NCBI GenBank assembly: GCA_963805975.1
Contig: CAWDVR010000005.1
Coordinates: forward strand, 512,001-576,000
Direction of reading: 5' to 3'
Source: an uncultured Acidobacteriota bacterium
GTDB taxonomy: Bacteria; Acidobacteriota; Thermoanaerobaculia; Multivoradales; SZUA-115
Length of the DNA stretch: 64,000 bases
Of the stretch, positions 21,559-46,671 are shown one piece after another (within the stretch, counting starts at the first letter, position 1; each line of letters begins with the position of its first letter). Both the position numbers and the translations under genes were made by a program. Under the pieces are notes generated by a model. It ran no database searches. It was not told the DNA's origin and saw only the letters and a program-made list of their open reading frames with translations.

Positions 21559-22329
21559 ATGCGGCAAAACCTCTTCCTGCTGAAAGAGCTCGTCCAGCGC
21601 GACTTCAAGGGCCGCTACGCCGGCTCCCTGTTCGGCCTTTTCTGGTCCTTCGCCCAGCCGCTCTGGCTTCTGGTGCTCTTCAGCTTCGTGTTCGCCACGG
21701 TGATGAAGATCTCGCTGGCGGGGGAGAGAACGGGGAGCTTCGCGGTGTTCGTGTTCTGCGGCCTCCTGCCATGGACGGCCCTCAACGAGGGCCTCAACCG
21801 GTCGGCGACGGCGGTGACCGACAGCTCCAACCTGGTGAAAAAGCTGCGGTTTCGGTCCCAGATCCTAGTCTTGACCGTGGTTCTGACGGCGCTGCTCCAC
21901 CAAGCGATCGCTATGTCCCTGTTCATGGTCTTCCTGGTCGCGACCGGTGAGCTTGAGTGGCGCGGGCTGCCGTTGCTCGCCCTGGCGATCCCCCTCCAGG
22001 CGGCGCTCACCGTGGGGCTGGGCCTGTTGCTCGCCGCCGTTCACGTGTTCTTCCGCGACACCGCGCAGATTCTGGCGCTCGCGCTCTCCGGCTGGTTCTA
22101 TTTCACGCCGATCGTCTATCCACTGAGCCTGGTTCCCGAGACCATCCGTCCCTGGGTCGAGCTCAACCCGCTGACGGCCCTGGTCGGCCTCTACCGGCAG
22201 GGGCTCCTCGGCGGCACCTTGACGCTGCCCTCGGGCACCGGAGCACTCGCCGTCCTTGCCGTCGTGGCGCTCCTCGGGGGAAGCTGGCTTTTTGGCCGGC
22301 TGGAGCCGCTTTTCGTCGACGAGGTTTGA
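21559..22329 (+). CDS. wzm: ABC-2 polysaccharide export permease
   Basis: RDFKGRYAGSLFGLFWS, six TM segments, FFRD, YFTPIVYP, LNPL. Confidence 0.92.
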   Translation: MRQNLFLLKELVQRDFKGRYAGSLFGLFWSFAQPLWLLVLFSFVFATVMKISLAGERTGSFAVFVFCGLLPWTALNEGLNRSATAVTDSSNLVKKLRFRSQILVLTVVLTALLHQAIAMSLFMVFLVATGELEWRGLPLLALAIPLQAALTVGLGLLLAAVHVFFRDTAQILALALSGWFYFTPIVYPLSLVPETIRPWVELNPLTALVGLYRQGLLGGTLTLPSGTGALAVLAVVALLGGSWLFGRLEPLFVDEV

Positions 22330-22449
22330 ATTCGTTCGCTGCCGTGGCGCAGAGCTTGCTTCCTGTTAGATTCTCGTCTGTAAAGGGCGTGCCTTGGTAC
22401 CGAGCACGCTTCTACCATCCGGTCTCATTCTTGAAGGGCTCGATTCTCT

Positions 22450-24294
22450 ATGCTGATTCAGCGGTTCAGGACTCCTTCGGCCATCTGTTGCCTCGCCGCT
22501 TTCCTCACGGGAACGGCCCTTTTGACCGGCTGCACCGCCAACTCTGCCGCCAACTCGGCCTCTGTGGCGCCGGCCAGCGAAGCAGCTCCGCCGGCAGCGG
22601 CTCCGGGAGCGCCGCCGGTGGCCGAGAAGCCGGCTCCTCCGCCCCCGGCGACCTCGAGCCCGCCCGCGCTGGCAACCTCGACTCCGGTGCGCACTCCGGA
22701 GCAGGCGCTCTCGGCGGTCTCGGGTGCCCAGGTCGATGTGCCTCCTCCCCCGCGGGCGGGCATCGAGCCGCCGGACGGCGTCTGGCTGAGCGACGAGACC
22801 GGCACCGAGTTCTATATCGAGAAGATGAAGCGCTACGAGGGCAAGTACAAGTGGATCACCGATCACCAGATCAACTATCTCGGCGTCAAGGTGGACATCG
22901 TCGACGCCGATGACGACTGGTTCTACGTCAAGGTCTATCGCGTTCGGGACTACGAGCGCAGCATCAAGCGCGTGGACCCGACGCCCGAGCAGCTCGCCGA
23001 GGTCGCGGCCACTTTCTCGGGCGATACCGGTCAATCCGATCGCTTGGAGTTCCGCGCTTTCGACCGTGGGTTGCCGGCCAACGGCCTGTGGCGCAACGGC
23101 TTCGTGATCGCCGACATGAATGGCGATGGCCACCCCGACATCGTGCACAGCCCGCCCCGCAAAGGCGGTGGCCTGCCGATCGTCTTCCTGGGCGACGGCA
23201 AGGGGGGCTGGCAGGTGTGGCGGGAGCTGCGCTATCCGCGGGAGTACGACTACGGCGACGTGGCCGTGGGCGACTTCAATGGCGACCGCCACCAGGACTT
23301 GGCGCTCGCCATCCACCTGCGCGGCATGCGGGTGCTGGTGGGCGACGGCAAGGGCCGTTTCACCGAGTGGTCGGACGGGCTCGACTACCAGGTGCCCGGC
23401 GAAGGTGGCGATTCCTCGGGCTTCTCCTCGCGCGCCGTTCGCGTCGTCGATTGGAATGGCGACGGTCGCCCCGACGTGCTGGCCCTCGCCGAGGGACCCC
23501 GCATCGGCAACCCCTCGGCCGAGCAGAGGCGGCGCGAGGGTCTGGGAGCGGTCGCCTTCGTGGCCGAGGGGCCGATGGTGTTCCTGAACCAGGGCAATGG
23601 GAAGTGGGTGAAGCAGGCCGAACCGGCGAACCTGCAGGGGATCTTCGGCGACGACCTCGAGGTTGGAGACTTCAACGCCGACGGCCGGGTCGACTTCGCG
23701 ACCTCCTCGAGCCGCATGTCGCGGAAGGATCTGGTCAACCTCGGCGGACCTGGCGTCGAATGGAAGGCGGAGATGATCGGGTCTGTGCGGTCCAACGCCT
23801 ACGTGCGCGGCATTTCGGTGGCAGACGTAGACCACGACGGCAAGGACGACCTCTTCGTCTCCTTCGTCTGCTACGAGCTGGGAATCTGGAGAAGCGGGAT
23901 CGACCTGCTCTACTCGCGGCCAGACGGCGCCTGGGAGCGGAAGTCGCTCTTCGCGCGCGAGGACCGCACGGCCTTCTACGGCATGGCCGCCGGTGACCTC
24001 GACGCCGATGGCGCCGTCGATGTCGTGGCGGTCGACAACGACGGCGGCATGCTCGTGCTGCTGGGCGATGGCAAGGGCGGCTTTGCCGTCGAGGAGTCGC
24101 CCGAGCTCAACAAGCTGCGCGGCATGTGCCGCGGCTACCGGGTTGAGCTGGCCGACCTCGACGGCGACGGCCGCGACGAGGTGATCGCCAACTACGCGGA
24201 CGAGCCCTCGGCGCTCTTCGACCCGCAGCGCTGCCTGAATGGCGGCGGTGTGGTGGCCGTCACCTCGGTTGCCAGGGCCGGTGCCGGCCGCTGA
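22450..24294 (+). CDS. FG-GAP/VCBS repeat lipoprotein
   Basis: LLTGC lipobox, Pro/Ala linker, seven DxNGDGxxD-type repeats. Confidence 0.85.
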   Translation: MLIQRFRTPSAICCLAAFLTGTALLTGCTANSAANSASVAPASEAAPPAAAPGAPPVAEKPAPPPPATSSPPALATSTPVRTPEQALSAVSGAQVDVPPPPRAGIEPPDGVWLSDETGTEFYIEKMKRYEGKYKWITDHQINYLGVKVDIVDADDDWFYVKVYRVRDYERSIKRVDPTPEQLAEVAATFSGDTGQSDRLEFRAFDRGLPANGLWRNGFVIADMNGDGHPDIVHSPPRKGGGLPIVFLGDGKGGWQVWRELRYPREYDYGDVAVGDFNGDRHQDLALAIHLRGMRVLVGDGKGRFTEWSDGLDYQVPGEGGDSSGFSSRAVRVVDWNGDGRPDVLALAEGPRIGNPSAEQRRREGLGAVAFVAEGPMVFLNQGNGKWVKQAEPANLQGIFGDDLEVGDFNADGRVDFATSSSRMSRKDLVNLGGPGVEWKAEMIGSVRSNAYVRGISVADVDHDGKDDLFVSFVCYELGIWRSGIDLLYSRPDGAWERKSLFAREDRTAFYGMAAGDLDADGAVDVVAVDNDGGMLVLLGDGKGGFAVEESPELNKLRGMCRGYRVELADLDGDGRDEVIANYADEPSALFDPQRCLNGGGVVAVTSVARAGAGR

Positions 24295-24322
24295 GCCGGC
24301 CAAAAAACCTCCACCAAGCGGC

Positions 24323-24352
24323 TTGACACCTCGAACAGCCGTCCTATAGTGT
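24323..24352 (+). promoter_or_regulatory. Near-consensus sigma70 promoter
   Basis: TTGACA (24323-24328), then TATAGT (16-nt spacer) overlapping TAGTGT (18-nt spacer), preceded by an A-tract; rare by chance in this GC background. Confidence 0.7.
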
Positions 24353-24638
24353 AAGAGCATAAGACGGCCTGACCGCCCGTGAATGCTCGGGAGACAGCTC
24401 CCGGGAGCTCGAGGGTGTAGCGGCCATCGGGTCGCACTCGAGATCGGCTGCGGCCCGATCGACACGCAGCAGCTTCGAACAACGTAAGACCGCTTTGAAT
24501 CTTTTGCTTGGAGGTGATGTTTCTCAGCCGGAAGGAACCACGGAAGGTACTGACAGCTAGTTGGATGTGTTGGGTGGGAAATCCGCTTTGGTTTCCCCGT
24601 GGGAAACAACGTAGTCACCTTTGAGGAGATTGTCTGTC

Positions 24639-25961: not shown

Positions 25962-25988
25962 TGGTTCGCGAGTAGCGTTTGCTCGACT

Positions 25989-26024
25989 CCAGGTGGGCCT
26001 GGCCTCCAGGCCCACCTGGTTTCT
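25989..26024 (+). terminator. Intrinsic terminator / stabilising hairpin
   Basis: CCAGGTGGGCCTGG-CCT-CCAGGCCCACCTGG 14-bp perfect stem followed by TTTCT. Confidence 0.75.
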
Positions 26025-26170
26025 CCGGCAGCCTCTGCAACGTGCTCCTCGTCACCGCGGGGCAGATTGGAGCGGCCAGCCACCGGCCAGCGAGCACACT
26101 CGCTCCGGCGGGAACTCTTCAACCCGGCGATCCGATCAGAGCCGGCTTTTCCAAGGACGGTAAACAATTG

Positions 26171-29100
26171 ATGGAGCTACGCTCGATGACCCGGAAGACC
26201 GCCCTGCAAGTTCCATGCTGCGTGAGCCTATGCCTACTCCTCGCGGTCGCCGTGTCTGCGCCGGTCGAGGCTCAGGGAAGCTGCCAGTTCTCCCTCGCCG
26301 CAGCCCCCGCATCGGGTGTGCCGGCGGCGCTCTGGGGCGACCTGAAGCCCGTGGACGCCGGCCAGCTGCCGTCGGACCGCGACAACACCGGGATGAGCGA
26401 CCTGATCTCGCCAAGCGAGACGCGGCCGCGCTGGATGTCGATCGACATCGAGAACAGCTACGGTTTCGTGGCCATCACCCACGGCTTGCAGATCTGGGAT
26501 CTCTCGAGCCCGGCTGCGCCCGCCTTCCGCGGCGTCGCCGGACCTGGCTCCTTTCTCTCCTGGCGCACGGACCCGCACGAGGGCAACCCGGCGCGTGACG
26601 TCGACTCTCCGCCAGGCAACGACGACGTGACCGCGGTCGCCGTGGTCGGCGGTGGTGGGCTCAACGTGTTCGACACCAGCGTCAAGAACAGCCCGGTGGC
26701 GCGCTACGCCGACGGCGGCAAGACGGCGAACCAGGTCTACGCCGGGCGCGTCGGCGGCAAGGACTATGCCTTCGTCGCCAGCACCGACGCAGGGCTCCTG
26801 GCCTACGACCTCGAAGTCGCCGGCAACCTGACGACGGCCTGTATCGACAACTCTCCCAGCTCGGTCACCTGCGGCGTTTACCGTGGTCGGATCGGCTCCC
26901 GCGGAGGGTTGCTGTACGTGGACGGCGTGTCCAACGCGGCGCAGACGCAGCTCTGGGTCGCCTCCGCCGGCGGCCGCACCAGCACGGGGATGGAGCTGTG
27001 GAACGTCTCCAATCCCACCAACCCTCAGCTCGTTTTCGCGCCGACCTTCCCGGAGTCGCCGTCCTACCCGGACTTCGTCCACGGTGTCGCCCTCTGGCGT
27101 AACGGGTCGAGCTACTACCTGGCGCTGCGGGTCGAGGTGGGCAACAACACCACCTCGGCGCGCATCTACGACGTGAGCTGCATCGCCACCAGCTCCTGCA
27201 CCGGCCTGCCGGCCCCGATCTGGTCGCGCAACCTGCCCAACGAGTCGGCGGAGTTCTACATTACCGCTTCCGAGGGCGCCGGCCGACGCTTCCTGTACTT
27301 CGGCAACAACAACCGCTGCGCGAGCGGGCTGCAGAACGAGTGGCTCTACGACGTCAGCAGCCCCTCCTCGCCGACCGACGTCACACCCGGCCCGGGTCTG
27401 GTGGGCGGCGAGCAGACGGGCTACTGGGGCTGGTACTACCGCGCCAACCCCACCGGTTTCAACGAGATCGACCCGCGGATCGGGAAGTTCAACGGCCAGC
27501 ACTTCTATCGCACTGCCTACAGCATCTTCGACATCCACGTGTTGAACAGCGGAGGCCCGCCCACGGCGGCCTTCAGCCACACGCCGGCCCTGGTCTACGA
27601 AGGCCAGCAGATCGACTTTGCGGACAGCTCGCTCGGCAACCCGGCCTCTTGGAGCTGGACCTTCCAGGACGCGACGCCTCCGACCTCGACCAGCCAGAAC
27701 CCGCAGAACGTCGTGTTCAACTCACCGGGCGCCAAGTCGGTCTCGCTCCAGGTGACGAATGGCTTCGGCACCGACACCGAGGTGCAGAGCATCAACGTGC
27801 TCGACCCGGCACCGGTGGTGGCGAGCGTTACCGTCTCGCCCAACCCCGCGTTCGTCTGCCAGCCCATCACCTTCACGGCCACCGGCGTCACCGGTTTCCC
27901 CCTGCCGACCCTCTCCTGGGACGTCCAGGGCACCAGCGGCTCGGTCGCGACGGGCGGCAACGTCAACCCGTTCGTCTGGTCCACCACGGGTGCCACTCTT
28001 CCCGGTACCTACACGGGTACCGTGACCGCCGCCAGCGGCGCCGGCTCCGACGCGGCCATCAGCCCGACGCTGGTGCTCAGCGCGCTCCCGACCCTACCCT
28101 TGGCCGGTGCCTTCACGCCTATCACCGACCTCTTTACCGGCGGGACGGTGCAGTTCCATGTCAACGCCCTGGGCGCCACGGCGTGGTGCTGGAACTTCGG
28201 CGACGGCACCTCGTTCCCCACCGGCTGCCTGCCCTCGAACCCCGGTAGCTTCAGCACCGATCCGGTGGCGGGTCCGAACCCGTCGCACACCTACCAGTCG
28301 GTCAACACCTACGTGGTGAGCGTCAGCATCCGCAACTGCGTCGAGGGGGTGCGGACCAGCGCGCCGCTCTCCGTCAGCGTGACCCAGGTCACGCCGCTGA
28401 TCGCGGACTTCGCGGCCCAGGGCGTCTTCTGCACCGGCTCCGGCTGCTTCGCCAACACCAACACGCCGATCACCTTCACCAATCTGACGACCGGCCTGCC
28501 GGACTTCTACGATTACGATTGGGCGGGTGACGGGACCTACGAGGACGCCAACCACACGACGCCCGTGACCATCCACACCTATAGCGCGACGGGCACCGTG
28601 AAGCCCACGCTGCGGGTACGGCGTGGTACCGAGCAGGACGTCTTCGAACACCGTCAGATCGTGCTCTCGACCGGAAGTGGCGGCGGCCTGCCGAGCGCCG
28701 CGATCAGCGGTCCCTTGTCCGGACAGGTGGGAGCTGCGCTCTCGTACAGCGTCTCGGCCAGCAACTGCTCGCCCGCGCCCTCCACCTGGACCTGGGACGT
28801 CGGCGGCGGCACCATCAGCGGCTCGACCACCGGCAACCAGATCTCGGTGAGCTTCTCGACGTCGGGCACGAAGGTCATTCGCGCCACGGCCGGCGCCGGC
28901 GGCTGCACCGGTACGTCCGACACCCACTCGGTCTCCATCACCACCCCGACCGGCGGCGGGACATTGGCTGCCAACTTCAGCTTCACCCCGATCAACCCGA
29001 CCCCTGGCCAGCAGGTTTCCTTCGATGGCACCACCTCGACCGGAAGCCCGACCGGCTTCACCTGGCACTTTGGCGACAACACCTCCGGTACCGGCGTGAA

Positions 29101-30916
29101 CGTCACCCACACCTACGCGCAGAGCGGCACCTACCAGGTGCAACTGGAAGTGAGCAAGCCGGGCAACACCTGCCCGTTCGGTACCTGCTCCGCCTCGGTC
29201 ACCAAGACGGTGACGGTGGGCGGCCCGACCGTTGCCGCGAGCTTCACCAGCAACGCCACCTGCGGCGCCTTCGAATGCACGGCCGAAACCGGCCAAGCGG
29301 TGAGCTTCACCTCCACCTCGCAGAACGCGACGGTGCTGGATTGGACCTTCGGTGACCAGACCTCGGCCACCGGCGCCACCGCCAGCCACACCTGGAACGT
29401 CGCCGGCAACTACCAAGTCGTGCTGACGGCGCGCGACGGCCAGGGCGGCAGCGCTCAGGCCACCAAGCTCTTCCGCGTCGAGGAGCCGCCGACGCAGGAC
29501 GAGGTCGTGATCCTGCCCTGGATCGCCGACACCACCGGTGCGCTCGAGCAACTGAGCGACCTGTACGTGACGAACCCCGGCACGGAGCCGATGAACATCG
29601 AGATCAGCTTCCGTGTCCGCGGCACACCCGAGGCGACGCCCCCCAGCGCAACCCGCACCGTGGGGCCGAAGGCCACGTTCTACGCCCCGGACGTGCTCAA
29701 CGATCTGTTCGATCGCAACGACACCGGCGGCTTCCTGGTGGTGAAGGCGCTGGACGTCGCCGTGGAGCCGGTGGTGGTCTCTCTCAATCGGACCTTCCAG
29801 CCCGGGGGCAAGACCTACGGACAGCTCGTGCCCGGCATCGGCGACCGCGAGCTGGCGGACATCGGCCGGGACAGCGGTGGCACGCAGTACCTGCTCGGGC
29901 TGTTCGATACCAATGAGCGCCTGACGCAGATCGGCCTCACCAACCCGCACCCCGAGACGGCCACGTATCGCCTGCGCTTCGTCGACCATCTCGGCAACAT
30001 CATCGCCAGCACGCCCCAGGCGCTGGCGGTCGCACCCTGGGGGCAGAAGCAGTTCCAGGTGCAGGAGCTTCGCGACCGCTTCGGTCTCGTGGGTCGCGAC
30101 GACTACCGGGTGGAGGTCGTCCAGGTCTCGGGTCAGACCCTCTTCGCCTACGCGGGCGTGATCCGCACCGGCACCGAGGATCCCTCCTTCGTGCAGGTCA
30201 GCCTGCCGAACCGGGCGCACACCTACCTGGTGGGCGCCACCTCCACGCCGGGCTTCAACAACGCGCTCTTCGTCACCGACGTGGTGCTCTCGAACCCGAC
30301 GACCCAGGTGATGCAGGTCGAGATGAAGTTCCGGGGACTCGGCGTCGACAGCCCCGAGCTGGGACCGGTCGACATCACCCTGTTGCCGAACGAGACGCAG
30401 CGCATCGAGGACGTGATCTTCGACCGCTTCAACCTGCACGACACGGTCGGCTTCCTCACCTTCGACAGTGAAGGCGCCGGCGGGCTCTTCCCGCTGATCC
30501 ACGGCGAGGTCTACCAGGACAGCGGCCCGCAGGCGCGCTACGGCCTGTTCATGCCCTCGCGCCGTGACGCCGAGATTGCCGGGGTCGGCCAGCAGCTCGT
30601 GCTCTCGGGCCTGCGTCAGCTCGCGGAAGACTCGAACACCAGCCTGCTCCTCTTCAACCCGGCCGAGGAGTCCGCGCTCTGCGACCTCGTCTACTACGGC
30701 CTGGGCGGCCAGGAGCTGGGACGGATCACCAACTACACGGTCTCGCCGGGAGGCATGCGGCAGATCAACCCGTCACGCCATCCGCTGCCTGCCGGCGGCG
30801 TGACCGGCGGCTTCTCGGTGGTGGTGGAGGTCAAGGCCGGTAGTTTGATGGGTGGAGCGCAGGTGGTCATCAACCGGACGAACGACCCGGCCTACATCTC
30901 GGCCGCCGTTCGTTGA
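26171..30916 (+). CDS. Large secreted multi-PKD surface protein
   Basis: Signal peptide; N-terminal propeller-like region (GLQIWDLS, GLNVFDTS, GMELWNVS); several PKD/Ig-like repeats (WNFGDG, WHFGDN, WTFGDQ); four C-terminal repeats with NP motif; start could be 26186. Confidence 0.85.
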   Translation: MELRSMTRKTALQVPCCVSLCLLLAVAVSAPVEAQGSCQFSLAAAPASGVPAALWGDLKPVDAGQLPSDRDNTGMSDLISPSETRPRWMSIDIENSYGFVAITHGLQIWDLSSPAAPAFRGVAGPGSFLSWRTDPHEGNPARDVDSPPGNDDVTAVAVVGGGGLNVFDTSVKNSPVARYADGGKTANQVYAGRVGGKDYAFVASTDAGLLAYDLEVAGNLTTACIDNSPSSVTCGVYRGRIGSRGGLLYVDGVSNAAQTQLWVASAGGRTSTGMELWNVSNPTNPQLVFAPTFPESPSYPDFVHGVALWRNGSSYYLALRVEVGNNTTSARIYDVSCIATSSCTGLPAPIWSRNLPNESAEFYITASEGAGRRFLYFGNNNRCASGLQNEWLYDVSSPSSPTDVTPGPGLVGGEQTGYWGWYYRANPTGFNEIDPRIGKFNGQHFYRTAYSIFDIHVLNSGGPPTAAFSHTPALVYEGQQIDFADSSLGNPASWSWTFQDATPPTSTSQNPQNVVFNSPGAKSVSLQVTNGFGTDTEVQSINVLDPAPVVASVTVSPNPAFVCQPITFTATGVTGFPLPTLSWDVQGTSGSVATGGNVNPFVWSTTGATLPGTYTGTVTAASGAGSDAAISPTLVLSALPTLPLAGAFTPITDLFTGGTVQFHVNALGATAWCWNFGDGTSFPTGCLPSNPGSFSTDPVAGPNPSHTYQSVNTYVVSVSIRNCVEGVRTSAPLSVSVTQVTPLIADFAAQGVFCTGSGCFANTNTPITFTNLTTGLPDFYDYDWAGDGTYEDANHTTPVTIHTYSATGTVKPTLRVRRGTEQDVFEHRQIVLSTGSGGGLPSAAISGPLSGQVGAALSYSVSASNCSPAPSTWTWDVGGGTISGSTTGNQISVSFSTSGTKVIRATAGAGGCTGTSDTHSVSITTPTGGGTLAANFSFTPINPTPGQQVSFDGTTSTGSPTGFTWHFGDNTSGTGVNVTHTYAQSGTYQVQLEVSKPGNTCPFGTCSASVTKTVTVGGPTVAASFTSNATCGAFECTAETGQAVSFTSTSQNATVLDWTFGDQTSATGATASHTWNVAGNYQVVLTARDGQGGSAQATKLFRVEEPPTQDEVVILPWIADTTGALEQLSDLYVTNPGTEPMNIEISFRVRGTPEATPPSATRTVGPKATFYAPDVLNDLFDRNDTGGFLVVKALDVAVEPVVVSLNRTFQPGGKTYGQLVPGIGDRELADIGRDSGGTQYLLGLFDTNERLTQIGLTNPHPETATYRLRFVDHLGNIIASTPQALAVAPWGQKQFQVQELRDRFGLVGRDDYRVEVVQVSGQTLFAYAGVIRTGTEDPSFVQVSLPNRAHTYLVGATSTPGFNNALFVTDVVLSNPTTQVMQVEMKFRGLGVDSPELGPVDITLLPNETQRIEDVIFDRFNLHDTVGFLTFDSEGAGGLFPLIHGEVYQDSGPQARYGLFMPSRRDAEIAGVGQQLVLSGLRQLAEDSNTSLLLFNPAEESALCDLVYYGLGGQELGRITNYTVSPGGMRQINPSRHPLPAGGVTGGFSVVVEVKAGSLMGGAQVVINRTNDPAYISAAVR

Positions 30917-30926
30917 CACGCCCCCG

Positions 30927-35208: not shown

Positions 35209-35229
35209 AGCCGGGTTCGAACCGTTCCG

Positions 35230-37391: not shown

Positions 37392-37413
37392 CGAGACGCT
37401 CGGCGGGCCGGCC

Positions 37414-38211: not shown

Positions 38212-38928
38212 GTGGTCCCAGCACTGTCCGTGGTGATCCCCGCGTATCGGGAAGAGCATCGCCTGCCGGCGACGCTCGACCGCGTGCTCGCCTATCTCGA
38301 GGCGCGGGGCCTTCCTTTCGAGATCCTGGTGGTCGACGACGGCTCGCCGGACCGAACGGCGGAGATCGCCCGCTCGTATGAAGCGCGAGGCGTGACCCTT
38401 CTCTCGCAGCCCCAGAACCGCGGCAAGGGAGCGGCCGTCAAGCGCGGCGTCCTCGCCTCGCGTGGCGTCCTCGTGCTGCTCACGGACGCCGACCTCTCGA
38501 CGCCGATCGAGGACGTGGAGCGCCTTGAGCGCGAGGTGGGGGAGGCACCGCTGGTGCTCGGCAGCCGCGCCCTCGAGAGCTCGGAGATCACGCACCGCCA
38601 GCCGTTCTACCGCGAGGCCATGGGCAAGACCTTCAACTGGATCCTGCGCCGCCTCGGCCTGGTGCACATGCGCGACACGCAGTGCGGCTTCAAGCTCCTG
38701 GCTGGCGACGAGGCGCGCCGGCTGTTCTCGGAGCTCACCATCGACCGCTTCGCCTACGACGTGGAGCTGGTGCTGCTCGCCCAGGAGCACGGCCTCGCCG
38801 TGCGCGAGGTGGGCGTGCGCTGGGCCGACTCGTCGGCCTCGCGCGTCGACCCTGTCGCCGACTCGGCGCGCATGCTGTGGGACGTGCTGCGCCTCGCCCG
38901 CCGGCGCCGGGAGATGAAGCGCAGATGA
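38212..38928 (+). CDS. Polyprenyl/dolichyl-phosphate glycosyltransferase-like GT2
   Basis: VVDDGS, NRGKGAAV, DADLS, DTQCGFK, FAYDVE. Confidence 0.9.
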   Translation: MVPALSVVIPAYREEHRLPATLDRVLAYLEARGLPFEILVVDDGSPDRTAEIARSYEARGVTLLSQPQNRGKGAAVKRGVLASRGVLVLLTDADLSTPIEDVERLEREVGEAPLVLGSRALESSEITHRQPFYREAMGKTFNWILRRLGLVHMRDTQCGFKLLAGDEARRLFSELTIDRFAYDVELVLLAQEHGLAVREVGVRWADSSASRVDPVADSARMLWDVLRLARRRREMKRR

Positions 38929-39872
38929 GCCAGCTCCGCCCCACCGAGGAGGGCGATCTCGCCCGGCTCTCCGACCTCTACAAGGAGCGCTTCGGCCATC
39001 CGCTGACCGCGGAGGAATGGCGCTGGAAATACCGCGCCCTGCCGGGAGAGGCCGAGAGCGTCGTGGCGGTGGACGACGCCGGCCGCGTGGTGGCCCATGC
39101 CGGCGCCCTGAAGCTGCCGGCGCGCTGGGCCGGGGGCGAGGGCGGGATCTGGCAGTTGACGGACTTTCTCGGCTCGACCCGCGGCGCGGGCCTGAAGGCG
39201 CCGCTGGTCAGCCTCGGGCGCTCCCTGCTGGAACGGCTGGGAGAGGCCAGCCAGGCGCCGTGGATCTTCGGCTTTCCCAGCGAGCGCCACTTCCAGCTCG
39301 GCGAGCGGGTGTTCGGCTACGGCCCGCTGGCCGAGGTCACGGAGCTCGCCGGGGACGTGTACCAGGCGGCGGCGCTGGCCGGGCGGGCGGAGGTGGCGCT
39401 CGAGGTCGGCGACCGCGGCGGGGACTGGGTGGAGGAGATCTGGGAAGCCTGCGGCCCGCCCGGGGCGGCCCCGCTGGGGGTGCGGCGCAGCGCGGCCTTC
39501 CTCGACTGGCGCTACTGGGCCCGGCCGGGGCGCTACTACCGCTTCTACCGCGTGCGCGGCGAGGGCGGCGACGGCCTGGCGGTGTTCGCCTTCGTGGGCT
39601 CGGAGGCGCTGGCCGCCGAGCTGTGGCTGCCCGCCGGCCGGGGCCTGGCCTCCGCGCTGCCGGCGATCGCCGGCGACCTGGTGGCGACCGGGCTCGAGCG
39701 CTGGCGCTTCTGGCCGCCGCCCCCGGGCGGCGAGCCGGGAGCTCTGGACGGCCTCGGGCTGGCGCCCCGCGCCCAGGTGTTCATCGGCTGCCGGGGTCGC
39801 GAGGGCGCTGGCAGCCCGGCGCCCTCTGCGGAGGGCTTCTTCTTCGCCATGGGCGACCATGACATCACCTAG
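38925..39872 (+). CDS. GNAT-like acyltransferase
   Basis: LRP..EGDL, WRWKY, FGFPS, RSAAFLDWRY pattern of two-domain GNAT-like proteins; ATGA overlap with upstream gene. Confidence 0.7.
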   Translation: MSQLRPTEEGDLARLSDLYKERFGHPLTAEEWRWKYRALPGEAESVVAVDDAGRVVAHAGALKLPARWAGGEGGIWQLTDFLGSTRGAGLKAPLVSLGRSLLERLGEASQAPWIFGFPSERHFQLGERVFGYGPLAEVTELAGDVYQAAALAGRAEVALEVGDRGGDWVEEIWEACGPPGAAPLGVRRSAAFLDWRYWARPGRYYRFYRVRGEGGDGLAVFAFVGSEALAAELWLPAGRGLASALPAIAGDLVATGLERWRFWPPPPGGEPGALDGLGLAPRAQVFIGCRGREGAGSPAPSAEGFFFAMGDHDIT

Positions 39873-42102
39873 GGCCGCTCGGGCCGGGATGCTCGCCGCC
39901 CTCCTCGCCGCCTGCTCCGACCCCGAGGCCGGGCACGGCTTCCGGTTGGACGAGGCGCTCGCCTCGGGCCTCGCGGAAGCCGGGGTCACGATCGCGGCCG
40001 GGGCCGAGCGCGCCGAGGTCGAGACGGCGGACGAGCGGCGCCCGGCGGTGGTGACGGACCTCGCGCCCTGGAGCTGGGAGGGCATCGTGCCGCGCCATGG
40101 CGCCTTCCACCTCGGCGCGCAGCTCGTGCCGGTGCCGGGAGCCGACACCGGGCGCTTCGAGGTGCGGGCGGAGCTGGCAGTGGGCCTCGGGCGCGAGGTG
40201 CTGGACGTGGGCGCGAGCCAGGAGGGCCGCTGGGTGGACCTGGCCGCGGACGTCTCCCGCTACGCCGGCCGGAAGGCGCGCCTCACCGTGACGCCATCGG
40301 CCACGGGCGACAGCGCCTCCGGCCACAAGGTCGCATGGACCTGGGCCGGGATCGAGCCGGCCGCGGCGGCCTCCCAGGAGCCAGCCCGACCGAACGTGCT
40401 CTTCATCCTCGTGGACACCCTGCGTGCCGACCACCTGACCCCGTACGGCTATGCGAGGGATACCTCGCCGCGCATCGCGCGCCTCCTGGCCGACCGCGGC
40501 GTGGTGGTCGAGACCGCCTACTCGCAGGCTCCGTGGACCGTGCCGTCCGCCGTCTCCTACATGACCAGCCGCTACCCCGGCGACCTCCTGCACGGCCCGA
40601 TGGAGAGCTACGCCATCCCCGAGGGCGTCGAGACCCTGGCCGAGCACTTCGCCGGCAAGGGCTACGAGACGGCGGCCTTCTACGGCAACTTCGTGCTGCG
40701 CGATGCCAACGGCTTCGGCCGCGGCTTCGCCACCCGCTACACGCCGCCGGCAGGGCCGGAGTCGAACCTGCTGCACGCGGACTCGGTCAACGCCCGCGCG
40801 CTTCCCTGGATCCGCAGCCACCAGCGCCGGCCGTTCTTCCTCTACGTCCACTACATGGACCCGCACGACCCCTACGACAACTCGGAGGTGGTGGACGGCC
40901 GCTCGCCCTTCTACCCGCAGTACCGGGGCAAGCTCTCGGGGCAGTGGGTGCACGGCGTCTACACCGGGGGCCTGCCGCTCGACGACCCGGCCGAGGACGT
41001 GGCCCACCTGACCGCGCTCTACGACACCGAGATCCACTACGTGGACCGGGCGATCGGAGACCTGCTCTCGGCGCTCGATCCGGAGGTGCTGGCCGACACG
41101 CTGGTGGTGCTCACCGCCGACCACGGCGAGGAGCTCTACGACCACGGTGGCTGGAAGCACGGCCAGACCCTCTACCAGGAGCAGATCCGCGTGCCCCTGC
41201 TCTTCCGCTGGGACCGGCGGCTGCCGGCGGGCCGGCGCCTGGCCGGCACCGTGCAGCTCCTCGATCTGCTGCCGACCCTCGCCGCGGCGGCGGGCAGCGA
41301 GCCCTCCGCGGCCTGGCAGGGCAGGAGCCTGCTGCCGGCGCTGGCGGGCGAGGCGCCGCTCGAGCGCCGGCCGGCCTTCGCCCAGCACCTGGCGAGCGGC
41401 CCGCTCCGTGCGGCGGCGATCGCCGGCCACAAGAAGCTCCTCTTCTTCAACCGCGAGGAGCCGTTCACGGCCACCAACGGCCTGATCGAGCACCTCTGGC
41501 GCCTGGACCTCGGGCGGCTCGCCCGCCGCGAGCTCTACGACCTCGAGGCCGATCCGGGCGAGAAGAGCAACCGGGTGAGCGCCGAGCCCACGGTCGCCGC
41601 GGCCCTCGAGCCGGTGATCGCCGAGCACCTCGACCGCGCCCTGCCGGGCCTCAAGATCCTCGCTTCCGGCCTCCCGGCGGGCTCGCGGCTGAGTGGTAGG
41701 ATCGTGCTCCAAGACCCCGCGGCAGAGTGGCATCCCTACTTCCTGGCACCCGCGGATCGAGTGACGGTTTCGGGCTCCGAGGTCGGCTTCGAGCTGGTGG
41801 GTGAGGCGGCCGAGGACGGGCCGCTCGAAAAGGGCCTCTGGTTCCCCGGCGAGGTGGCGGGGCTGGCACGGATCGAGGCGCGGCTTTCCGAGGGCGCCGT
41901 CGAGATCCTGGTCGGAGAGTCCGCCGCCTACCGTGGAGGCGCGGTCGCCGCCGCCGAGCTGCGTGCGGCGGGCAGGCCCGCCCGGCCTCCCGAGCGGCAC
42001 CCTGCTCTGCGGCTCTGGAGCCGGGCCCCCGCGGTGGGACCGCCGCGGCCGTCCGACGCCGAGGTGGAAAAGGGCCTGCGGGCCCTCGGCTACATCGAAT
42101 GA
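39859..42102 (+). CDS. Sulfatase-superfamily lipoprotein (Thr at nucleophile position)
   Basis: LAAC lipobox, PNVLFILVDTLRADH, APWTVPSAVS, HYMDPHDPY, YDTEI, ADHGE, C-terminal LRALGYIE. Confidence 0.87.
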   Translation: MTSPRAARAGMLAALLAACSDPEAGHGFRLDEALASGLAEAGVTIAAGAERAEVETADERRPAVVTDLAPWSWEGIVPRHGAFHLGAQLVPVPGADTGRFEVRAELAVGLGREVLDVGASQEGRWVDLAADVSRYAGRKARLTVTPSATGDSASGHKVAWTWAGIEPAAAASQEPARPNVLFILVDTLRADHLTPYGYARDTSPRIARLLADRGVVVETAYSQAPWTVPSAVSYMTSRYPGDLLHGPMESYAIPEGVETLAEHFAGKGYETAAFYGNFVLRDANGFGRGFATRYTPPAGPESNLLHADSVNARALPWIRSHQRRPFFLYVHYMDPHDPYDNSEVVDGRSPFYPQYRGKLSGQWVHGVYTGGLPLDDPAEDVAHLTALYDTEIHYVDRAIGDLLSALDPEVLADTLVVLTADHGEELYDHGGWKHGQTLYQEQIRVPLLFRWDRRLPAGRRLAGTVQLLDLLPTLAAAAGSEPSAAWQGRSLLPALAGEAPLERRPAFAQHLASGPLRAAAIAGHKKLLFFNREEPFTATNGLIEHLWRLDLGRLARRELYDLEADPGEKSNRVSAEPTVAAALEPVIAEHLDRALPGLKILASGLPAGSRLSGRIVLQDPAAEWHPYFLAPADRVTVSGSEVGFELVGEAAEDGPLEKGLWFPGEVAGLARIEARLSEGAVEILVGESAAYRGGAVAAAELRAAGRPARPPERHPALRLWSRAPAVGPPRPSDAEVEKGLRALGYIE

Positions 42103-44030
42103 CCTCCCTCCTGCCACCAGGCGAACCCGAACGCGTGGACGCGGCGAGCGCGCTCGTCCTCGCACCGCACTACGACGACGAGGTGCTGGGCTGCGGCGGG
42201 CTGGTGGCACGGCTCGCGGCCTCCGGTGCCGAGGTCGGCGTTCTCTTCCTGACCGACGGTACGGCGAGCACAGACGAGGGTGAGGATCCTCTCCAGCACG
42301 CGGCCCAGCGCCGCCGGGAGGCGGAGGCCGCCGGCGCGGTGCTCGGCATCCGTTGGAGCGAGCACCTCGGGCTCCCCGACGGCCGGCTGGAGCACCAGGT
42401 CGAGGCGGCGGCAGAAGGAATCGCGCGCCTCCTGGCCCAACGCCGGCCCCGGCTGCTCCTCGTGCCTTCGCCGCTCGAGGTGACGGCGGACCACCGCGCG
42501 GCCTTCGCGGCCCTGCACCGGGCACTGTCACCGCTCCGCGAAGCGGCGGGAGCTTCGACCCCCGAGGAGACCGCCCTGCTCGCCGCGACGGCGGAGCTCG
42601 AGGTCCTCGCCTACGAGGTCAACCGGCCTCTCTTCCCCAACCTGTTGGTGGACGTGAGCGCCGAGATCCCCAAGCTCGAAGCGGCCATGGCCTGCTACGC
42701 CAGCCAGCAGCGGCGGCACGACTACCTCCGGGCGCGCCTGGGTCTGTCGCGCTATCGCACGCTGACCCTCCCGGCCGGTGTGGAGGCGGCCGAGGCCTAC
42801 GTCCGCCTCGCGCCGGCAGACTTCGTCACCCGCAGTCACGCACAGCTCGTGGCGCACCTGGGGGGCGAGCCGCGGCGGCTCGAGGTGCGCGAGGGGCCGC
42901 GGATCTCGGTGGTGGTGCGCACCAAGGACCGCCCGGCCCTCCTCGCCGAGGCGCTGGCGAGCCTCGCCGCGGGTTTCTACCGCCGGGCCGAGGTGGTGCT
43001 GGTCAACGACGGCGGCCGGCCGCCGGAGGTCCCGGCCGACTTCCCGCTGCCGGTGCTGCGCATCGACCTGCCGCAGAACCTGGGCCGCGCCGCTGCGGCC
43101 CAGGCCGGGGTCGAGGCGGCGACCGGCGACTACGTCGCCTTCCTCGACGACGACGACATTGCCGCCCCCGAGCACCTCGCCACCTTGGCCGGGCTGGTCT
43201 CCACCGCCGGCCTGCGCGTGGCCTACACGGACGCCGCGGTCGGCGTCTACGAGCTCGACGCCCGAGAGGGCTGGCGCCTCGCCGAGCGTCGCCTGCCCTA
43301 CAGCCGCGACTTCGACCCCGATCTCCTGGCGGTCGACAACTACATCCCCTTCAACACCGTGCTCGTGGAGCGCGCGCTCTTCGCCGAGGTGGGGCCGTTC
43401 GACGAGTCCCTGCCCTTCTTCGAGGACTGGGACTACCTGATCCGACTCGCCGCCAGGGCGCCGTTCCATCACTTGCGGCAGGTGACCTGCGAGTACCGGC
43501 ACTTCCGCGGCGCCGGCCATCACGTGCTGGGAGAGACACCGAAGAACCGCGCCGACTTCCTGGCGATGAAGGAGCAGGTGCTGGCCAAGCACGCGACCCA
43601 CCTCACGCCGGCACGCCTGGCCGCCGTGGTCGATCGCCTGCGGGCCGAGATCGTGGACCTGGCCGAGGCTCGGGGCACGGCGCGGCGCGAGGCCCGGGAG
43701 CGGGCGGCCGCGGTCGCCCGTCTCGAGGCCCAGCGCGGCGAGGCCGAGGACCGCTTTCACCGCCTGCACGGCGAGCTGGTCTCGGTCCAGGGCGACCACG
43801 CGCGTCTGCTCTCGGAGATCGAGGGCCACGCCGGCGAGATCCGCCGCCTGCACGGCGAGGAACGGCGCCTGAACGACGACAACCAGCGCCTGGAGCGGGA
43901 CCTCACCGTGCAGACCGACCTCGTGGCCCGCCTCTACGCCGAGCTCGAGCGCCTGACGAAGCGCATCGAGGCCATGGAGTCGACCCGCGCCTGGCGTGCC
44001 CATCAATGGTGGCAGCGCAGGGTGCGATGA
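42099..44030 (+). CDS. PIG-L deacetylase + GT2 + coiled-coil fusion
   Basis: APHYDDE, RRRE, DH (PIG-L); VNDGG, FLDDDD, FEDWD (GT2); heptad-rich tail ending STRAW. Confidence 0.88.
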   Translation: MTSLLPPGEPERVDAASALVLAPHYDDEVLGCGGLVARLAASGAEVGVLFLTDGTASTDEGEDPLQHAAQRRREAEAAGAVLGIRWSEHLGLPDGRLEHQVEAAAEGIARLLAQRRPRLLLVPSPLEVTADHRAAFAALHRALSPLREAAGASTPEETALLAATAELEVLAYEVNRPLFPNLLVDVSAEIPKLEAAMACYASQQRRHDYLRARLGLSRYRTLTLPAGVEAAEAYVRLAPADFVTRSHAQLVAHLGGEPRRLEVREGPRISVVVRTKDRPALLAEALASLAAGFYRRAEVVLVNDGGRPPEVPADFPLPVLRIDLPQNLGRAAAAQAGVEAATGDYVAFLDDDDIAAPEHLATLAGLVSTAGLRVAYTDAAVGVYELDAREGWRLAERRLPYSRDFDPDLLAVDNYIPFNTVLVERALFAEVGPFDESLPFFEDWDYLIRLAARAPFHHLRQVTCEYRHFRGAGHHVLGETPKNRADFLAMKEQVLAKHATHLTPARLAAVVDRLRAEIVDLAEARGTARREARERAAAVARLEAQRGEAEDRFHRLHGELVSVQGDHARLLSEIEGHAGEIRRLHGEERRLNDDNQRLERDLTVQTDLVARLYAELERLTKRIEAMESTRAWRAHQWWQRRVR

Positions 44031-45313
44031 CGCGCATCGCGCTCCTGCCGAGCGAGCCGCTTCGCGCCCGCATGGCGGGCATCGGTCTGCGCTACCTGGA
44101 GCTGGCGCGGCGCCTGCCGCGGTCGGGTCTCGAGGTCGTGGTGCTGACGCCCGGCGAGCCGGAGGAGGTGCCGGCGCTGGTCCGCGGCCAGGGGGCGTCG
44201 GCGGAGGTCCGGCGCTTCGCGCGCGGCGGCCTCGCGCGCCTCCTCGCGGACTGCGACGGCGCCGTGGCGCAGGGCCAGCTCGCCAACGATCTGCTGCTCG
44301 AGTGCCCGGCGTTGCCGGTGGCGATCGACCTCTACGACCCGTGGCTGATCGAGAACCTGCACTACACCGCGACCCTGGGGCTCGATCCCTACCGCAACGA
44401 CCACGCCACGTGGGTGCTCCAGATGTCCCGCGGCGACTTCTTCCTCTGCTCGTCCGAGGAACAGCGCCGCTTCTACCTCGGCTTCCTGGCCGCGCTCGGC
44501 CGGCTCAACCCGCGGCGCGTCGAGACCGATCCCACCCTCGGCGGCCTGATCGCCACCGTGCCGTTCGGTCTGCCCGAGGAGCTGCCGCCGCACCAGCCCG
44601 TGCTCCCCGCGCGGCACGAGGGCGGCCGGCGCCTGCTCTTCGGCGGCCTCTACGACTGGTACGACCCGTGGACCCTGCTCGACGCCCTGGCGCGGCTCGA
44701 AGCCCTGCCCTGGACGCTGCTCCTGGTCGAGAACCCCAACCCGACCTCGACACCGCAGCGCCTCTTCGCGGAGGTGCGCGCCTGGTGCGAGGCGCGGGGC
44801 TGGTGGGGCAGCCCCAACCGCCGTGCCAGAGTCGAGGCGATCCCCTGGGTGCCGTTCGAGCGGCGCTACGACCTGCTGCGTGACGTGGATGCGCTGGTGG
44901 CCACCCACCGGCCATCGATCGAGACCGAGCTGGCGCTCAGGACCCGGTTTCTCGATGCTTTCGCGGCCGGCTGCCCGGCGGTGGCGAGCGACGGCGGCAC
45001 CGTGGCGCGGCTGATGCGCGAGGAGGGTGCCGGCTGGGTGGCGCCGCCGGGCGACGCGGCGGCGCTGGCGGCCTGCCTGGAAGAGGTCCTCGCCGGCGGC
45101 GAGCCGGTGGCGGCCCGGCGGCGGGCGGGCCTCGCGCTGGCGCGACGGTTCTCGTGGGACGCGGTGCTGGCGCCGCTCGTCGCCTGGTGCCGGGAGCCGC
45201 AGAGCGATCCCACGAAGGACGACTTCGCCTTCCGGCCGCCCACCGTGGCGCCTCCGGACACGTTCTCCTTCCGCCTGCGCCGGCGCCTCGCCACGCTCCA
45301 GGGAGAGCGATGA
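44027..45313 (+). CDS. GT4-like glycosyltransferase
   Basis: MAGIGLRY, DLYDP, GGLYDWYDP, RTRFLD, FSWD; ATGA overlap. Confidence 0.82.
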   Translation: MTRIALLPSEPLRARMAGIGLRYLELARRLPRSGLEVVVLTPGEPEEVPALVRGQGASAEVRRFARGGLARLLADCDGAVAQGQLANDLLLECPALPVAIDLYDPWLIENLHYTATLGLDPYRNDHATWVLQMSRGDFFLCSSEEQRRFYLGFLAALGRLNPRRVETDPTLGGLIATVPFGLPEELPPHQPVLPARHEGGRRLLFGGLYDWYDPWTLLDALARLEALPWTLLLVENPNPTSTPQRLFAEVRAWCEARGWWGSPNRRARVEAIPWVPFERRYDLLRDVDALVATHRPSIETELALRTRFLDAFAAGCPAVASDGGTVARLMREEGAGWVAPPGDAAALAACLEEVLAGGEPVAARRRAGLALARRFSWDAVLAPLVAWCREPQSDPTKDDFAFRPPTVAPPDTFSFRLRRRLATLQGER

Positions 45314-46671
45314 GCGTGCCGCGCAAGGTCTCGGTCGCCATCCTGTCGTGGAACGGCCGCCACCACCTCGCGACCTGCCTCGCGGCGCTCGCCGAGCAGC
45401 ACGACCCGGGGGTGCCGTGGGAGATCCTGGTGCTCGACAACGGCTCGCGCGACGGCACCGCGGACTGGCTCGCGGCGCGCCACCCGGAAGTGCGGGTGAT
45501 CGCGAGCCCGGTGAACCTCGGCTTCTGCGCCGGCAACAACCGGCTGGTGGAGGAGGCGACCGGCGACGCCGTGGCGCTGCTCAACAACGACACCCGGCCG
45601 CGGCCGGAGTGGCTCGCGGCCCTGGTCGATGCGCTGGCCGCGGCGCCGCCGGACGTGGCGGCGGTCTCCGGCCTGATCCTCGACTGGGAAGGGCGGCGGC
45701 TCGACTTCGCGCGCGGCGCCATGACCTTCGACGGCCACGCCTTCCAGCTCGGCTTTCGCCGGCCGCTCGCGGCAGTGGAAATGCCGGCTGCCGGCACCGA
45801 GCTGCCCTTCGCCTGCGGCGGCAACCTGCTGGTGCGGCGCGAGTCGTTCCTGGCGGCCGGCGGCTTCGACGCCGACTACTTCGCCTACCTCGAGGACGTG
45901 GACCTCGGCTGGCGGCTGTGGTCGGGCGGCGAGCGGGTGCTGTTCGCACCCGAGGCCGTGGTGCACCACCGGTCGAGCGCCACGAGCGACCTCCTCGGCC
46001 TCTTCAATCGCGGGTTTCTGTTCGAGCGGAACGCCTTCCTCACCGCCTACAAGAACTACGAGGAAGGGCTGTGGCAGAAGATGATGCCGGCGGTTCTGCT
46101 GACGCTCCTCCACCGCACGCAGGTGCTTCTCGAGCGCAACAACCCCGGTGGCCACGAGCTGGCTATCGACCCCTACGCCGGTCATATCGCGGACACGGCG
46201 CCCGGCGCCGCAAGGCAGCCCAGTGGTGCGCCGCCCGCGATCGCCGAGCCCGCTGCCTGGAGCGGCGACCGGCTGCTGGCCGGGCTGCGCGAGAGGTGGC
46301 AGCGCCACGGTCCGCGGGAGTTCCTGCGCCGCGGCATCGTGTCGGCGGCCAACCGCCTGCTGGGCACCTCCGCGACCGGGCCGGTCGGGCGCCCGGATCC
46401 GCCGTGCCTGACCGACGAGCGCTCCATCGCCCAGCTCAGGGCGCTCTCCTATCTCGGCGGCCACCTGGGCGCCGCCGCAGCCAAGCGCCGCTCCATCCAG
46501 ACCCGCCGGCGGCGCTCCGACGCCGAGTACTTCGAGCGCTTCCCGCTCTACGTCGTGCCCACCTATCCAGGAGACGAGGAGCTCTTCGCGAGCGCGGGGT
46601 TCGAGAGCTGGCTACCGGAAGGCGTGCCGCTGGTGCGGAGCACGCTGGGTGAGGTGATGGAGGTGGGGTAG
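45310..46671 (+). CDS. GT2 glycosyltransferase
   Basis: ILSWNG, DNGSRDG, NLGFCAGNN, LLNND, GGFDADYFAYLEDVD. Confidence 0.9.
   Translation: MSVPRKVSVAILSWNGRHHLATCLAALAEQHDPGVPWEILVLDNGSRDGTADWLAARHPEVRVIASPVNLGFCAGNNRLVEEATGDAVALLNNDTRPRPEWLAALVDALAAAPPDVAAVSGLILDWEGRRLDFARGAMTFDGHAFQLGFRRPLAAVEMPAAGTELPFACGGNLLVRRESFLAAGGFDADYFAYLEDVDLGWRLWSGGERVLFAPEAVVHHRSSATSDLLGLFNRGFLFERNAFLTAYKNYEEGLWQKMMPAVLLTLLHRTQVLLERNNPGGHELAIDPYAGHIADTAPGAARQPSGAPPAIAEPAAWSGDRLLAGLRERWQRHGPREFLRRGIVSAANRLLGTSATGPVGRPDPPCLTDERSIAQLRALSYLGGHLGAAAAKRRSIQTRRRRSDAEYFERFPLYVVPTYPGDEELFASAGFESWLPEGVPLVRSTLGEVMEVG

Follow-up and report, generated by a model that had tools for sequence, protein, structure and literature searches.

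The locus analyzed here, within a window of 64,000 nucleotides from an uncultured bacterium of the Acidobacteriota (class Thermoanaerobaculia), raises the question of why the two genes of a glycan exporter enclose genes for exported proteins. The permease gene wzm (21559–22329, + strand; ABC2_membrane PF01061, E 2.8e-15) and the ATPase gene wzt (30927–32186, +; ABC_tran PF00005, E 3e-22) are separated by 8,597 bp. The insert holds three genes only, encoding an FG-GAP repeat protein with the lipobox LTGC (22450–24294, +; five PF13517 matches), a secreted acidic 44-kDa protein of 440 amino acid residues, termed P440 (24639–25961, +), and a large secreted PKD protein of 1581 residues (26171–30916, +; five PKD_4 matches). 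This co-oriented, split arrangement had been described in the initial annotation, and it was borne out by the coordinates and the Pfam matches. Divergent from wzm lies an XRE-family HTH regulator (21014–21466, −; Pfam HTH_3), which was kept at this position class-wide in the synteny comparison, often with a TPR gene following it. From its predicted fold, codon bias and family range, P440 is a candidate coat (S-layer) protein; we give about an even chance to the reading that it is the major coat protein, tethered non-covalently to a Wzm/Wzt-exported and probably LPS-linked glycan.

Downstream of wzt, profile matches were obtained for a radical SAM/SPASM enzyme (32197–33315, +), conserved beside wzt in relatives, and for a GT2 glycosyltransferase (33326–34366, +). 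The run is interrupted by an unknown ORF (34363–35208) and a beta-lactamase-family gene (35230 to about 36381, −). It continues with a GT4 glycosyltransferase (36390–37391, −; a related GT4 lies on the + strand in most relatives) and, by profile matches, a 2OG-Fe(II) oxygenase (37414–38112, −) and a DPM-like polyprenyl-phosphate glycosyltransferase (38212–38928, +). These are followed by a GNAT-like protein (38925–39872, +), an exported sulfatase-family protein (39859–42102, +; PF00884, E 3e-45), a PIG-L deacetylase-GT2-coiled-coil protein (42099–44030, +; SMC-like coiled-coil match at residues 505–629), a GT4 (44030–45313, +; profile match) and a GT2 that is kept in the locus across orders (45310–46671, +). 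The downstream genes named in the initial annotation were recovered, except that the GT4 at 36390–37391 and the oxygenase are on the minus strand, and that the GNAT product, which has no Pfam match of its own, is GNAT-like only by way of a homologue whose GNAT portion it matches in BLAST (E 2e-6). No Rfam match was obtained within 20900–47500.

As judged from sequence comparison, the split layout arose early in Thermoanaerobaculia and is common across the class. Orthologues of wzm were present in 35 of 40 relatives (identity 52–85%), and the orthologous wzm and wzt were split around P440 in 18 of the 22 genomes with both genes on one contig. In broken assemblies P440 lay on the expected side in 10 of 12, and in other orders of the class the split layout was observed at 13 of the 15 loci examined. 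All 18 paralogous wzm/wzt pairs, by contrast, were adjacent (9–128 bp between matches, hand-read from listings), in agreement with the earlier remark that the two genes are usually neighbors; the split of the orthologous pair is therefore not due to chance. A recent insertion or an assembly artefact was ruled out by the class-wide synteny. The initial annotation had also called for a synteny search, with unlinked homologues counting against a surface module, and the enclosed genes proved to be linked to wzm/wzt class-wide. P440 was found in 98 of the 121 sampled genomes of the class. Tandem arrays of up to five P440 genes occur in the locus, and the linkage was kept across orders at P440 identities of 25–40%. 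Its pairwise identities tracked those of wzm (Spearman 0.76) and wzt (0.69) at 23 loci whose members are kin and not independent, which is the pattern expected of long co-inheritance. The wzm/wzt orthologues and their glycosyltransferases also persist in genomes or loci without P440; one genus with wzm/wzt had no P440 match (0 of 16), so that the coat would be dispensable.

P440 has an SPI-type leader (by inspection), a computed mass of 44.2 kDa and pI of 4.05, 42 D/E against 11 K/R residues in the mature chain, and four conserved cysteines. The AF2 model (pLDDT 93.7) contains two ASRAH-like beta-sandwiches, of which residues 254–415 were aligned with TM1070 (1nc7; VIA Z 9.2, rmsd 2.7, 104 residues aligned) and residues 18–233 with ASRT (2ii7; VIA Z 5.7, rmsd 3.6, 103 aligned). 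By its leader, pI and modelled fold, P440 would qualify as the soluble, acidic, beta-rich, leader-bearing type of protein expected of an S-layer subunit. Its sequence had no Pfam, NCBIfam or PDB match, the whole chain had no Foldseek match, and no plasmid match was obtained; in the Atlas it matched unnamed clusters only, the sole named row, Slr4 (0.77), being at chance level and treated as noise. None of the characterised S-layer proteins was among the sequence or fold matches. P440 may resemble proteobacterial ‘cell surface proteins’. In the available part of the ASRAH description (PMC2739507), secreted domains of this kind are arranged as dyads or tetrads, and binding of sugars at the surface is their predicted role. 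P440 shares with that superfamily (TM1070, ASRT, DUF5719) the fold, the secreted dyad/tetrad arrangement and the link to glycosyltransferase genes, but differs in its long disulfide-bonded insertions, in having no Pfam match and apparently in lacking the His/Cys pocket. The equivalents of the TM1070 pocket residues, placed only by spacing from the conserved Asn58, are Thr51/Ser55, so the ligand site may differ. The same partial source describes no S-layer subunit role for any ASRAH protein. The ASRAH-like domains of P440 are predicted to hold the coat on by non-covalent glycan binding.

The PKD protein, which is Ser/Thr-rich, consists of an LVIVD-like N-terminal region, a PKD stalk and a C-terminal tetrad of ASRAH-like domains (29498–30913). 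The AF2-modelled tail repeats gave Foldseek probabilities of 1.0 (TMt 0.72–0.75), and the tail scored 28.9 bits with DUF5719, above the cut-off of 26.2. Two P440 units replace these four domains in some relatives, and P440 units are also found C-terminally on unrelated large exported proteins. Sequence homology between the P440 domains and the tail repeats was rejected (best HH probability 1.4%); the link, as modelled, lies in structure and architecture alone. A role as passenger adhesin is proposed for the PKD protein. The FG-GAP protein, whose homologues in some cases lack the lipobox, is possibly a glycan-binding or assembly factor.

A near-consensus internal sigma70 promoter for P440 (TTGACA-N16-TATAGT) was located at 24323–24350 (+), and promoters with at least 10 of 12 matches were found upstream of 16 of 29 P440 orthologues, compared with 5 of 300 random windows. 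Leader conservation revealed a start-less extended Shine-Dalgarno sequence, GGAGGTGAT (24510–24518, +; STAB-SD-like), 129 nt ahead of the P440 start codon. It was invariant in 15 of 15 aligned leaders, and a start-less Shine-Dalgarno preceded 34 of 36 P440 genes versus 33 of 2000 random windows. Service to an upstream ORF was rejected, as 33 of 34 had no normally spaced start codon. The P440 family has many dispersed paralogues and tandem fusions, and the six paralogues away from the locus carry neither its promoter nor the leader motif upstream; one locus copy alone has the extreme expression signals. With a ribosomal-protein reference, P440 ranked 1 of 1801 filtered ORFs in codon bias, tied with a near-identical copy; with a second reference of nine housekeeping genes it reached the 96th percentile only, and the GGT/CGT codon measure was picked after the codons had been seen. 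Taken from the DNA, these signals suggest very high expression. Lactobacillus S-layer genes have long 5' UTRs, codon bias and strong promoters according to the available part of PMC3666127, and the match of the P440 promoter, leader and codon bias to this list was counted for the S-layer reading. With these hallmarks and its class-wide conservation, the locus fits the dedicated surface module proposed initially. RNase J was not found in the genome (96% complete) and RNase E/G was found twice, which leaves it uncertain that the element works by the classical STAB-SD mechanism. In two soil RNA runs (shares 0.10 and 0.06), contigs with few differences covered parts of P440 and of other genes too; one begins inside the P440 promoter. 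As such contigs can neither show a start nor rank genes, they were given no weight in the argument.

Several genes bear on the exported glycan. The C-terminal extension of Wzt may resemble a glycan-binding module, its match to Wzt_C being weak (PF14524, E 0.008; 16.6 bits, under the cut-off of 30.4). The product of 42099–44030 combines enzyme modules, a coiled coil and a C-terminal segment, as do coiled-coil terminators of ABC-dependent O-polysaccharide systems; a basic/aromatic C-terminal segment was present in 9 of 10 listed homologues, the other being cut by the locus end. It is thus a candidate chain terminator and length ruler. The locus resembles those of E. coli O9a WbdD and Klebsiella O4/O7/O12 (PMC11231755) in Wzm, the C-terminally extended Wzt, the GT2/GT4 set and a protein with catalytic module, coiled coil and C-terminal membrane helix, whereas the distal module combines a PIG-L deacetylase with a GT2 here and is a methyltransferase/kinase or Kdo transferase there. 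It is likely that Wzm/Wzt export a glycan with a capped end, probably the O-antigen of LPS. Unusual decoration of this glycan is suggested by the genes for the radical SAM enzyme, the sulfatase and, in some relatives, an arylsulfotransferase. The initial annotation had left the glycan either to decorate the enclosed proteins or to anchor the lattice; the anchoring role is favored, since LpxC, KdtA and a heptosyltransferase (GT9) are encoded, STT3 had no match in the genome, the ORFs of 21559–46671 include no ligase (as noted earlier), oligosaccharyltransferase or initiating transferase, and wzm/wzt and their glycosyltransferases persist without P440. The proposed genome search for a Wzy_C/STT3-type enzyme returned six Wzy_C-containing frames, none assignable as WaaL, and an initiating transferase could not be assigned either. 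WecA had a below-cut-off match only, and the PglL-type domain PF11846 was matched neither in this genome nor in the control genomes.

The expression and synteny data would also fit an abundant but non-crystalline P440 that binds glycan at the surface or in a matrix and joins the exported polysaccharide chains to one another, in the manner of the Vibrio matrix proteins whose genes lie within the vps region. The lectin-like ASRAH fold, the adhesin-like FG-GAP and PKD neighbors, and the dispersed paralogues and fusions agree with such a protein. However, the extreme expression signals are confined to one copy, which is what a single structural subunit would show, the terminator of O-antigen type and the LPS genes indicate a glycan that stays bound to the cell, and a separate Wzy/Wzc exopolysaccharide cluster lies elsewhere in the genome; we consider this explanation unlikely, though of appreciable probability.

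Covalent attachment of the glycan to P440 and the PKD protein by an unlinked O-oligosaccharyltransferase or GT-C enzyme, as in slg systems, is quite improbable. No such transferase was found in the locus, an extended D/E-x-N-x-S/T sequon was absent from ten close P440 homologues, and the missing STT3 and the P440-less loci also count against it. The genome's six Wzy_C frames and five PMT-like matches, one Wzy_C gene adjoining another PKD/ASRAH-repeat gene, the Ser/Thr-rich PKD protein and the polyprenyl-phosphate glycosyltransferase would be in its favor, as would the PMT_2/YfhO-type membrane proteins (4 of the 13 ORFs with multiple TM segments that were taken from 34 related loci), but genes of the GT-C type occur sporadically, and their products might modify the glycan rather than the proteins. 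Less probable still is that P440 is an abundant structural protein that stays in the periplasm or forms filaments, and that its operon position reflects shared envelope regulation and not binding. P440 has an SPI leader, no signal for targeting to the outer membrane was seen, its paralogues are dispersed, and secretion genes were not found in the locus; against this, very large adhesin-like proteins, expected to be extracellular, carry P440 units at their C-termini, and the linkage outlasts the divergence of P440 across orders.

The precedent chosen initially was the slg cluster of Geobacillus/Paenibacillus, in which Wzm/Wzt and glycosyltransferases likewise lie near an S-layer candidate. Such clusters by definition encode an oligosaccharyltransferase and an initiating transferase, while the present cluster has no ligase or initiating transferase and its host is a diderm with LPS. 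A closer precedent, missed at that stage, is Aeromonas salmonicida, for which the available text gives a wb(salmo)/A-layer locus of the form wzm-[sps T2SS + vapA]-wzt, with S-layer genes between wzm and wzt, and wzt needed for O-antigen (PMC4483657); the A. hydrophila O11 locus is related (PMC4413209). Both loci place a 44–49 kDa S-layer-type gene between wzm and wzt, with a Wzt of about 420–440 residues, glycosyltransferases downstream and an LPS-bearing host; the architecture is therefore of a kind already known. They differ in that the Aeromonas insert carries T2SS (sps) genes and ours FG-GAP and PKD genes, in that the database matches of P440 showed no similarity to VapA or to any solved chain, and in that the layout occurs in few species there and class-wide here. 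The resemblance is likely convergent. Gram-negative S-layers bind O-antigen, as stated in the part of PMC8559796 available; the slg clusters are mentioned there too.

If P440 is the coat protein, the GT2/GT4 enzymes would extend a polyprenyl-bound glycan chain, the deacetylase-GT2-coiled-coil protein would cap it and the Wzt tail would check the cap, after which an unlinked Wzy_C protein would ligate the glycan to lipid A-core. P440 would be made in bulk from its own promoter and a leader-stabilised mRNA, disulfide-folded in the periplasm and moved across the outer membrane by a general type II system (two secretins are encoded elsewhere in the genome; the locus itself encodes no secretion system). 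Two P440 chains, with two domains each, may together correspond to the TM1070 tetramer, attach to the glycan and assemble as a layer, and the PKD protein would be a low-copy passenger displayed on the same kind of four-domain foot. Possible, though only tentatively put forward, is a broader proposal: that sugar-binding ASRAH domains make up a new S-layer family whose lattice unit doubles as the glycan anchor, and that a four-domain foot (two P440 units or a tetrad resembling DUF5719) fixes large adhesins in the coat, as a diderm counterpart of SLH/CWB2 anchoring, with the class-wide start-less Shine-Dalgarno boosting subunit output in a lineage for which no RNase J was found.

Whether Acidobacteriota have S-layers is described as ‘ambiguous’ in the accessible part of a 2024 structure-based survey (10.1101/2024.05.28.596244). 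The locus names a concrete acidobacterial S-layer candidate together with a likely anchor glycan and passenger proteins. If the reading is true, it would add a new S-layer fold and, independently of the first, a second example of wzm and wzt being separated by an S-layer gene; the group, which is widespread and for the most part uncultured, would also gain a surface marker.

The initial annotation had described a split wzm...wzt locus as a candidate S-layer and glycosylation system, and its gene calls were correct when rechecked on the window sequence. The wzm (21559-22329) and wzt (30927-32186) genes have the same orientation and are separated by 8,597 bp, which hold an FG-GAP protein with a lipobox, a secreted acidic protein of 440 residues (P440; 24639-25961, plus strand) and a PKD protein of 1581 residues (26171-30916, plus strand). 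The downstream enzymes were found as listed there, except that one GT4 gene and the 2OG gene lie on the minus strand, the GNAT assignment is indirect and two unrelated-looking ORFs break up the glycan genes. These two ORFs, at 34363-36381, encode an uncharacterized exported protein with an HxHxH-like motif and a beta-lactamase-family protein; neither had a counterpart in the related loci examined. An XRE-HTH gene (21014-21466), divergent from wzm and kept across orders (window; L021-L040 and L118-L134), is a likely regulator of the locus; in many relatives it is followed by a TPR gene, which is not adjacent in the window. Further upstream lie a T2SSE/PilB ATPase gene (13429-15162) and, ∼3-6 kb from wzm (15273-18401), genes for a GT9 heptosyltransferase and a PfkB-family protein, which we take to be HldE-like.

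The synteny search proposed in the initial annotation revealed P440 homologs between wzm and wzt in 18 of 22 same-order relatives with both genes on one contig, and in 13 of 15 loci from other orders. Orthologs of wzm and of wzt were each present in 35 of 40 same-order relatives, where P440 positions were taken from the matches listed (52 further rows were unlisted). Among the matches listed, the intervals that enclose P440 in the 18 loci measure 7.5-15.1 kb, one locus was split by the FG-GAP gene alone, and two, with wzm and wzt megabases apart, belonged to a genus without P440; in the last of the 22, wzm and wzt are adjacent with FG-GAP-P440-PKD immediately upstream. When the two genes were on separate contigs (12 relatives), P440 was on the expected side in 10, again among the matches listed. 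Paralogous wzm/wzt pairs, read off by hand, were adjacent in 18/18. In other orders wzm had a match in 36 genomes, of which 15 were examined (10 chosen after a nearby P440 match had been seen); these showed the order wzm-FG-GAP-P440-(gap or large protein)-wzt in the 13, with one adjacent without P440 and one ending at a contig edge; four of the five picked blind were split. Judged by the source names of its closest homologs, the host belongs to the class Thermoanaerobaculia (Acidobacteriota). P440 matches occurred in 98 of 121 genomes and 57 of 61 genera of this class, but among about 274 Acidobacteriota outside it in only 5 (both tallies count unpublished genomes, G063 and/or G406; no claim is based on these alone). 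The family forms 2274 clusters at 50% identity, with tandem arrays of up to five genes beside wzt (74 loci, in part the same as the relatives set).

The AlphaFold model of P440 (pLDDT 93.7, pTM 0.91) consists of two beta-sandwich domains, and its four cysteines are conserved at 96-100%. Only two structural matches stood out, TM1070 for the C-domain (Z 9.2, rmsd 2.7, 104 residues) and ASRT for the N-domain (Z 5.7, rmsd 3.6, 103 residues), both of the ASRAH superfamily. The C-terminal tail of the PKD protein, four repeats in an ABAB pattern with a confident predicted fold, also matched TM1070/ASRT in structure and DUF5719 in sequence, and profile comparison of P440 with this tail detected no similarity. 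Two P440 units take the place of this tail in two related genomes and in two database proteins, and other giant proteins end in one. According to the accessible text of PMC2739507, ASRAH domains form tetramers when solo, occur as dyads or tetrads when secreted, and are predicted to bind surface sugars. Given this pattern and the tail swap, we infer that the PKD tail has its equivalent in a dimer of P440, each making a four-domain foot. The same genome encodes another PKD protein whose repeats are ASRAH-like, and its gene adjoins a Wzy_C gene (L136:4401-10191, contig C2). Shorter paralogs of the PKD N-terminal region without the ASRAH tail are encoded at C5:121384-124233 and C3:520955-522688, and such paralogs sit inverted inside the locus in L031, L035 and L038.

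A promoter close to consensus is located 316 nt upstream of the P440 start. Sites with at least 10/12 matches precede 16 of 29 orthologs (13/18 within the order, 3/11 outside) vs. 5 of 300 random windows. The leaders diverge from one another except at this promoter, at the true ribosome site and at one invariant element, GGAGGTGAT (24510-24518), an extended Shine-Dalgarno sequence complementary to the 16S 3′ end of the same genome. Of 36 genes, 34 carry it 43-177 nt upstream (vs. 33 of 2000 random windows); it is start-less in 33 of the 34 (no start codon at normal spacing), and was absent before the P440 paralogs (0/6). It resembles the STAB-SD stabilizer at about -125 of cry3 genes (PMC12970973, in part), although RNase J was not found in the host genome; GGAGGTGAT, which across the class sits 75-180 nt before the locus copy of P440, is a candidate mRNA stabilizer or ribosome standby site. 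In codon bias, P440 ranked first of 1801 crudely filtered ORFs against 25 ribosomal-protein/EF-Tu genes, tied with a near-identical copy, and at the 96th percentile against nine other housekeeping genes. Among 18 related loci, a P440 gene exceeded its neighbors in GGT+CGT share in all 18 (a measure picked after looking) and had the highest ribosomal-reference score in 16. These signals, which are proxies for expression, agree with the features listed for Lactobacillus S-layer genes in the accessible part of PMC3666127. One paralog is ∼99% identical to P440 in DNA over the mature region, although its signal peptide differs and it lacks a strong promoter, and another two lie in tandem and are nearly identical to each other (paralogs of note: C1:950947-952269 and C4:116993-119835), which suggests gene conversion or silent cassettes.

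With LpxC, KdtA and the GT9 heptosyltransferase (5 kb upstream of wzm) encoded, the envelope is of the LPS type. The wzt C-terminal tail gave a weak CBM-like match, and the gene at 42099-44030 (enzyme modules, coiled coil, conserved C-terminal segment) has the layout of O-polysaccharide terminators (PMC11231755, as excerpted). No oligosaccharyltransferase or ligase had been seen in the window; in the whole genome STT3 was not found, while six Wzy_C frames (two of them in a Wzy/Wzc-type cluster) and five PMT-like matches lie outside the locus, with no WaaL or protein transferase recognizable among them. PMT_2/YfhO or arylsulfotransferase genes are added in some relatives' loci, the latter between the PKD gene and wzt in L028, L030 and L037; the arylsulfotransferase genes, together with the sulfatase, hint at a sulfated glycan.

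The initial annotation had left two roles for this glycan, decorating the enclosed proteins or anchoring a lattice. Because wzm/wzt and the glycosyltransferases are retained in loci or genomes that lack P440, a housekeeping surface glycan fits better than one made to decorate P440. Covalent glycosylation of P440 by the exported glycan is unlikely. A glycan-tethered protein coat is the best explanation, with about an even chance of being right. Lattice formation is the step that separates this coat from a non-crystalline glycan-binding surface or matrix protein, a doubtful reading that still ranks ahead of covalent glycosylation. Passage of P440 across the outer membrane is predicted from the two secretins that the genome encodes, one of them within a set of genes that, on visual inspection, looks like a type II secretion cluster. 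A periplasmic or filament role appears the least probable reading.

The wzm-[S-layer gene]-wzt layout is already known from Aeromonas salmonicida A450, where wzm and wzt flank the A-layer gene together with its T2SS, and where mutation of wzt abolished O-antigen (PMC4483657; a related Aeromonas locus is described in PMC4413209; both as excerpted); the proteins, fold and lineage of the P440 locus differ. The locus is unannotated in the databases searched, and the family was undescribed in the accessible portions of the open literature searched on S-layers of Thermoanaerobaculia, Thermoanaerobaculum and Acidobacteria (including PMC8559796 and PMC5900883). The accessible part of PMC8559796 places a few unnamed Acidobacteria proteins in its S-layer sequence map, and the main text of a 2024 preprint (10.1101/2024.05.28.596244) calls S-layers in Acidobacteriota ambiguous; its supplementary tables could list a related protein. 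The split locus with P440 is real and ancient. In genus g12 (L115-L117) the wzm and wzt orthologs are far apart and 16 genomes gave no P440 match, and this genus provides a natural negative control for the presence of the coat.
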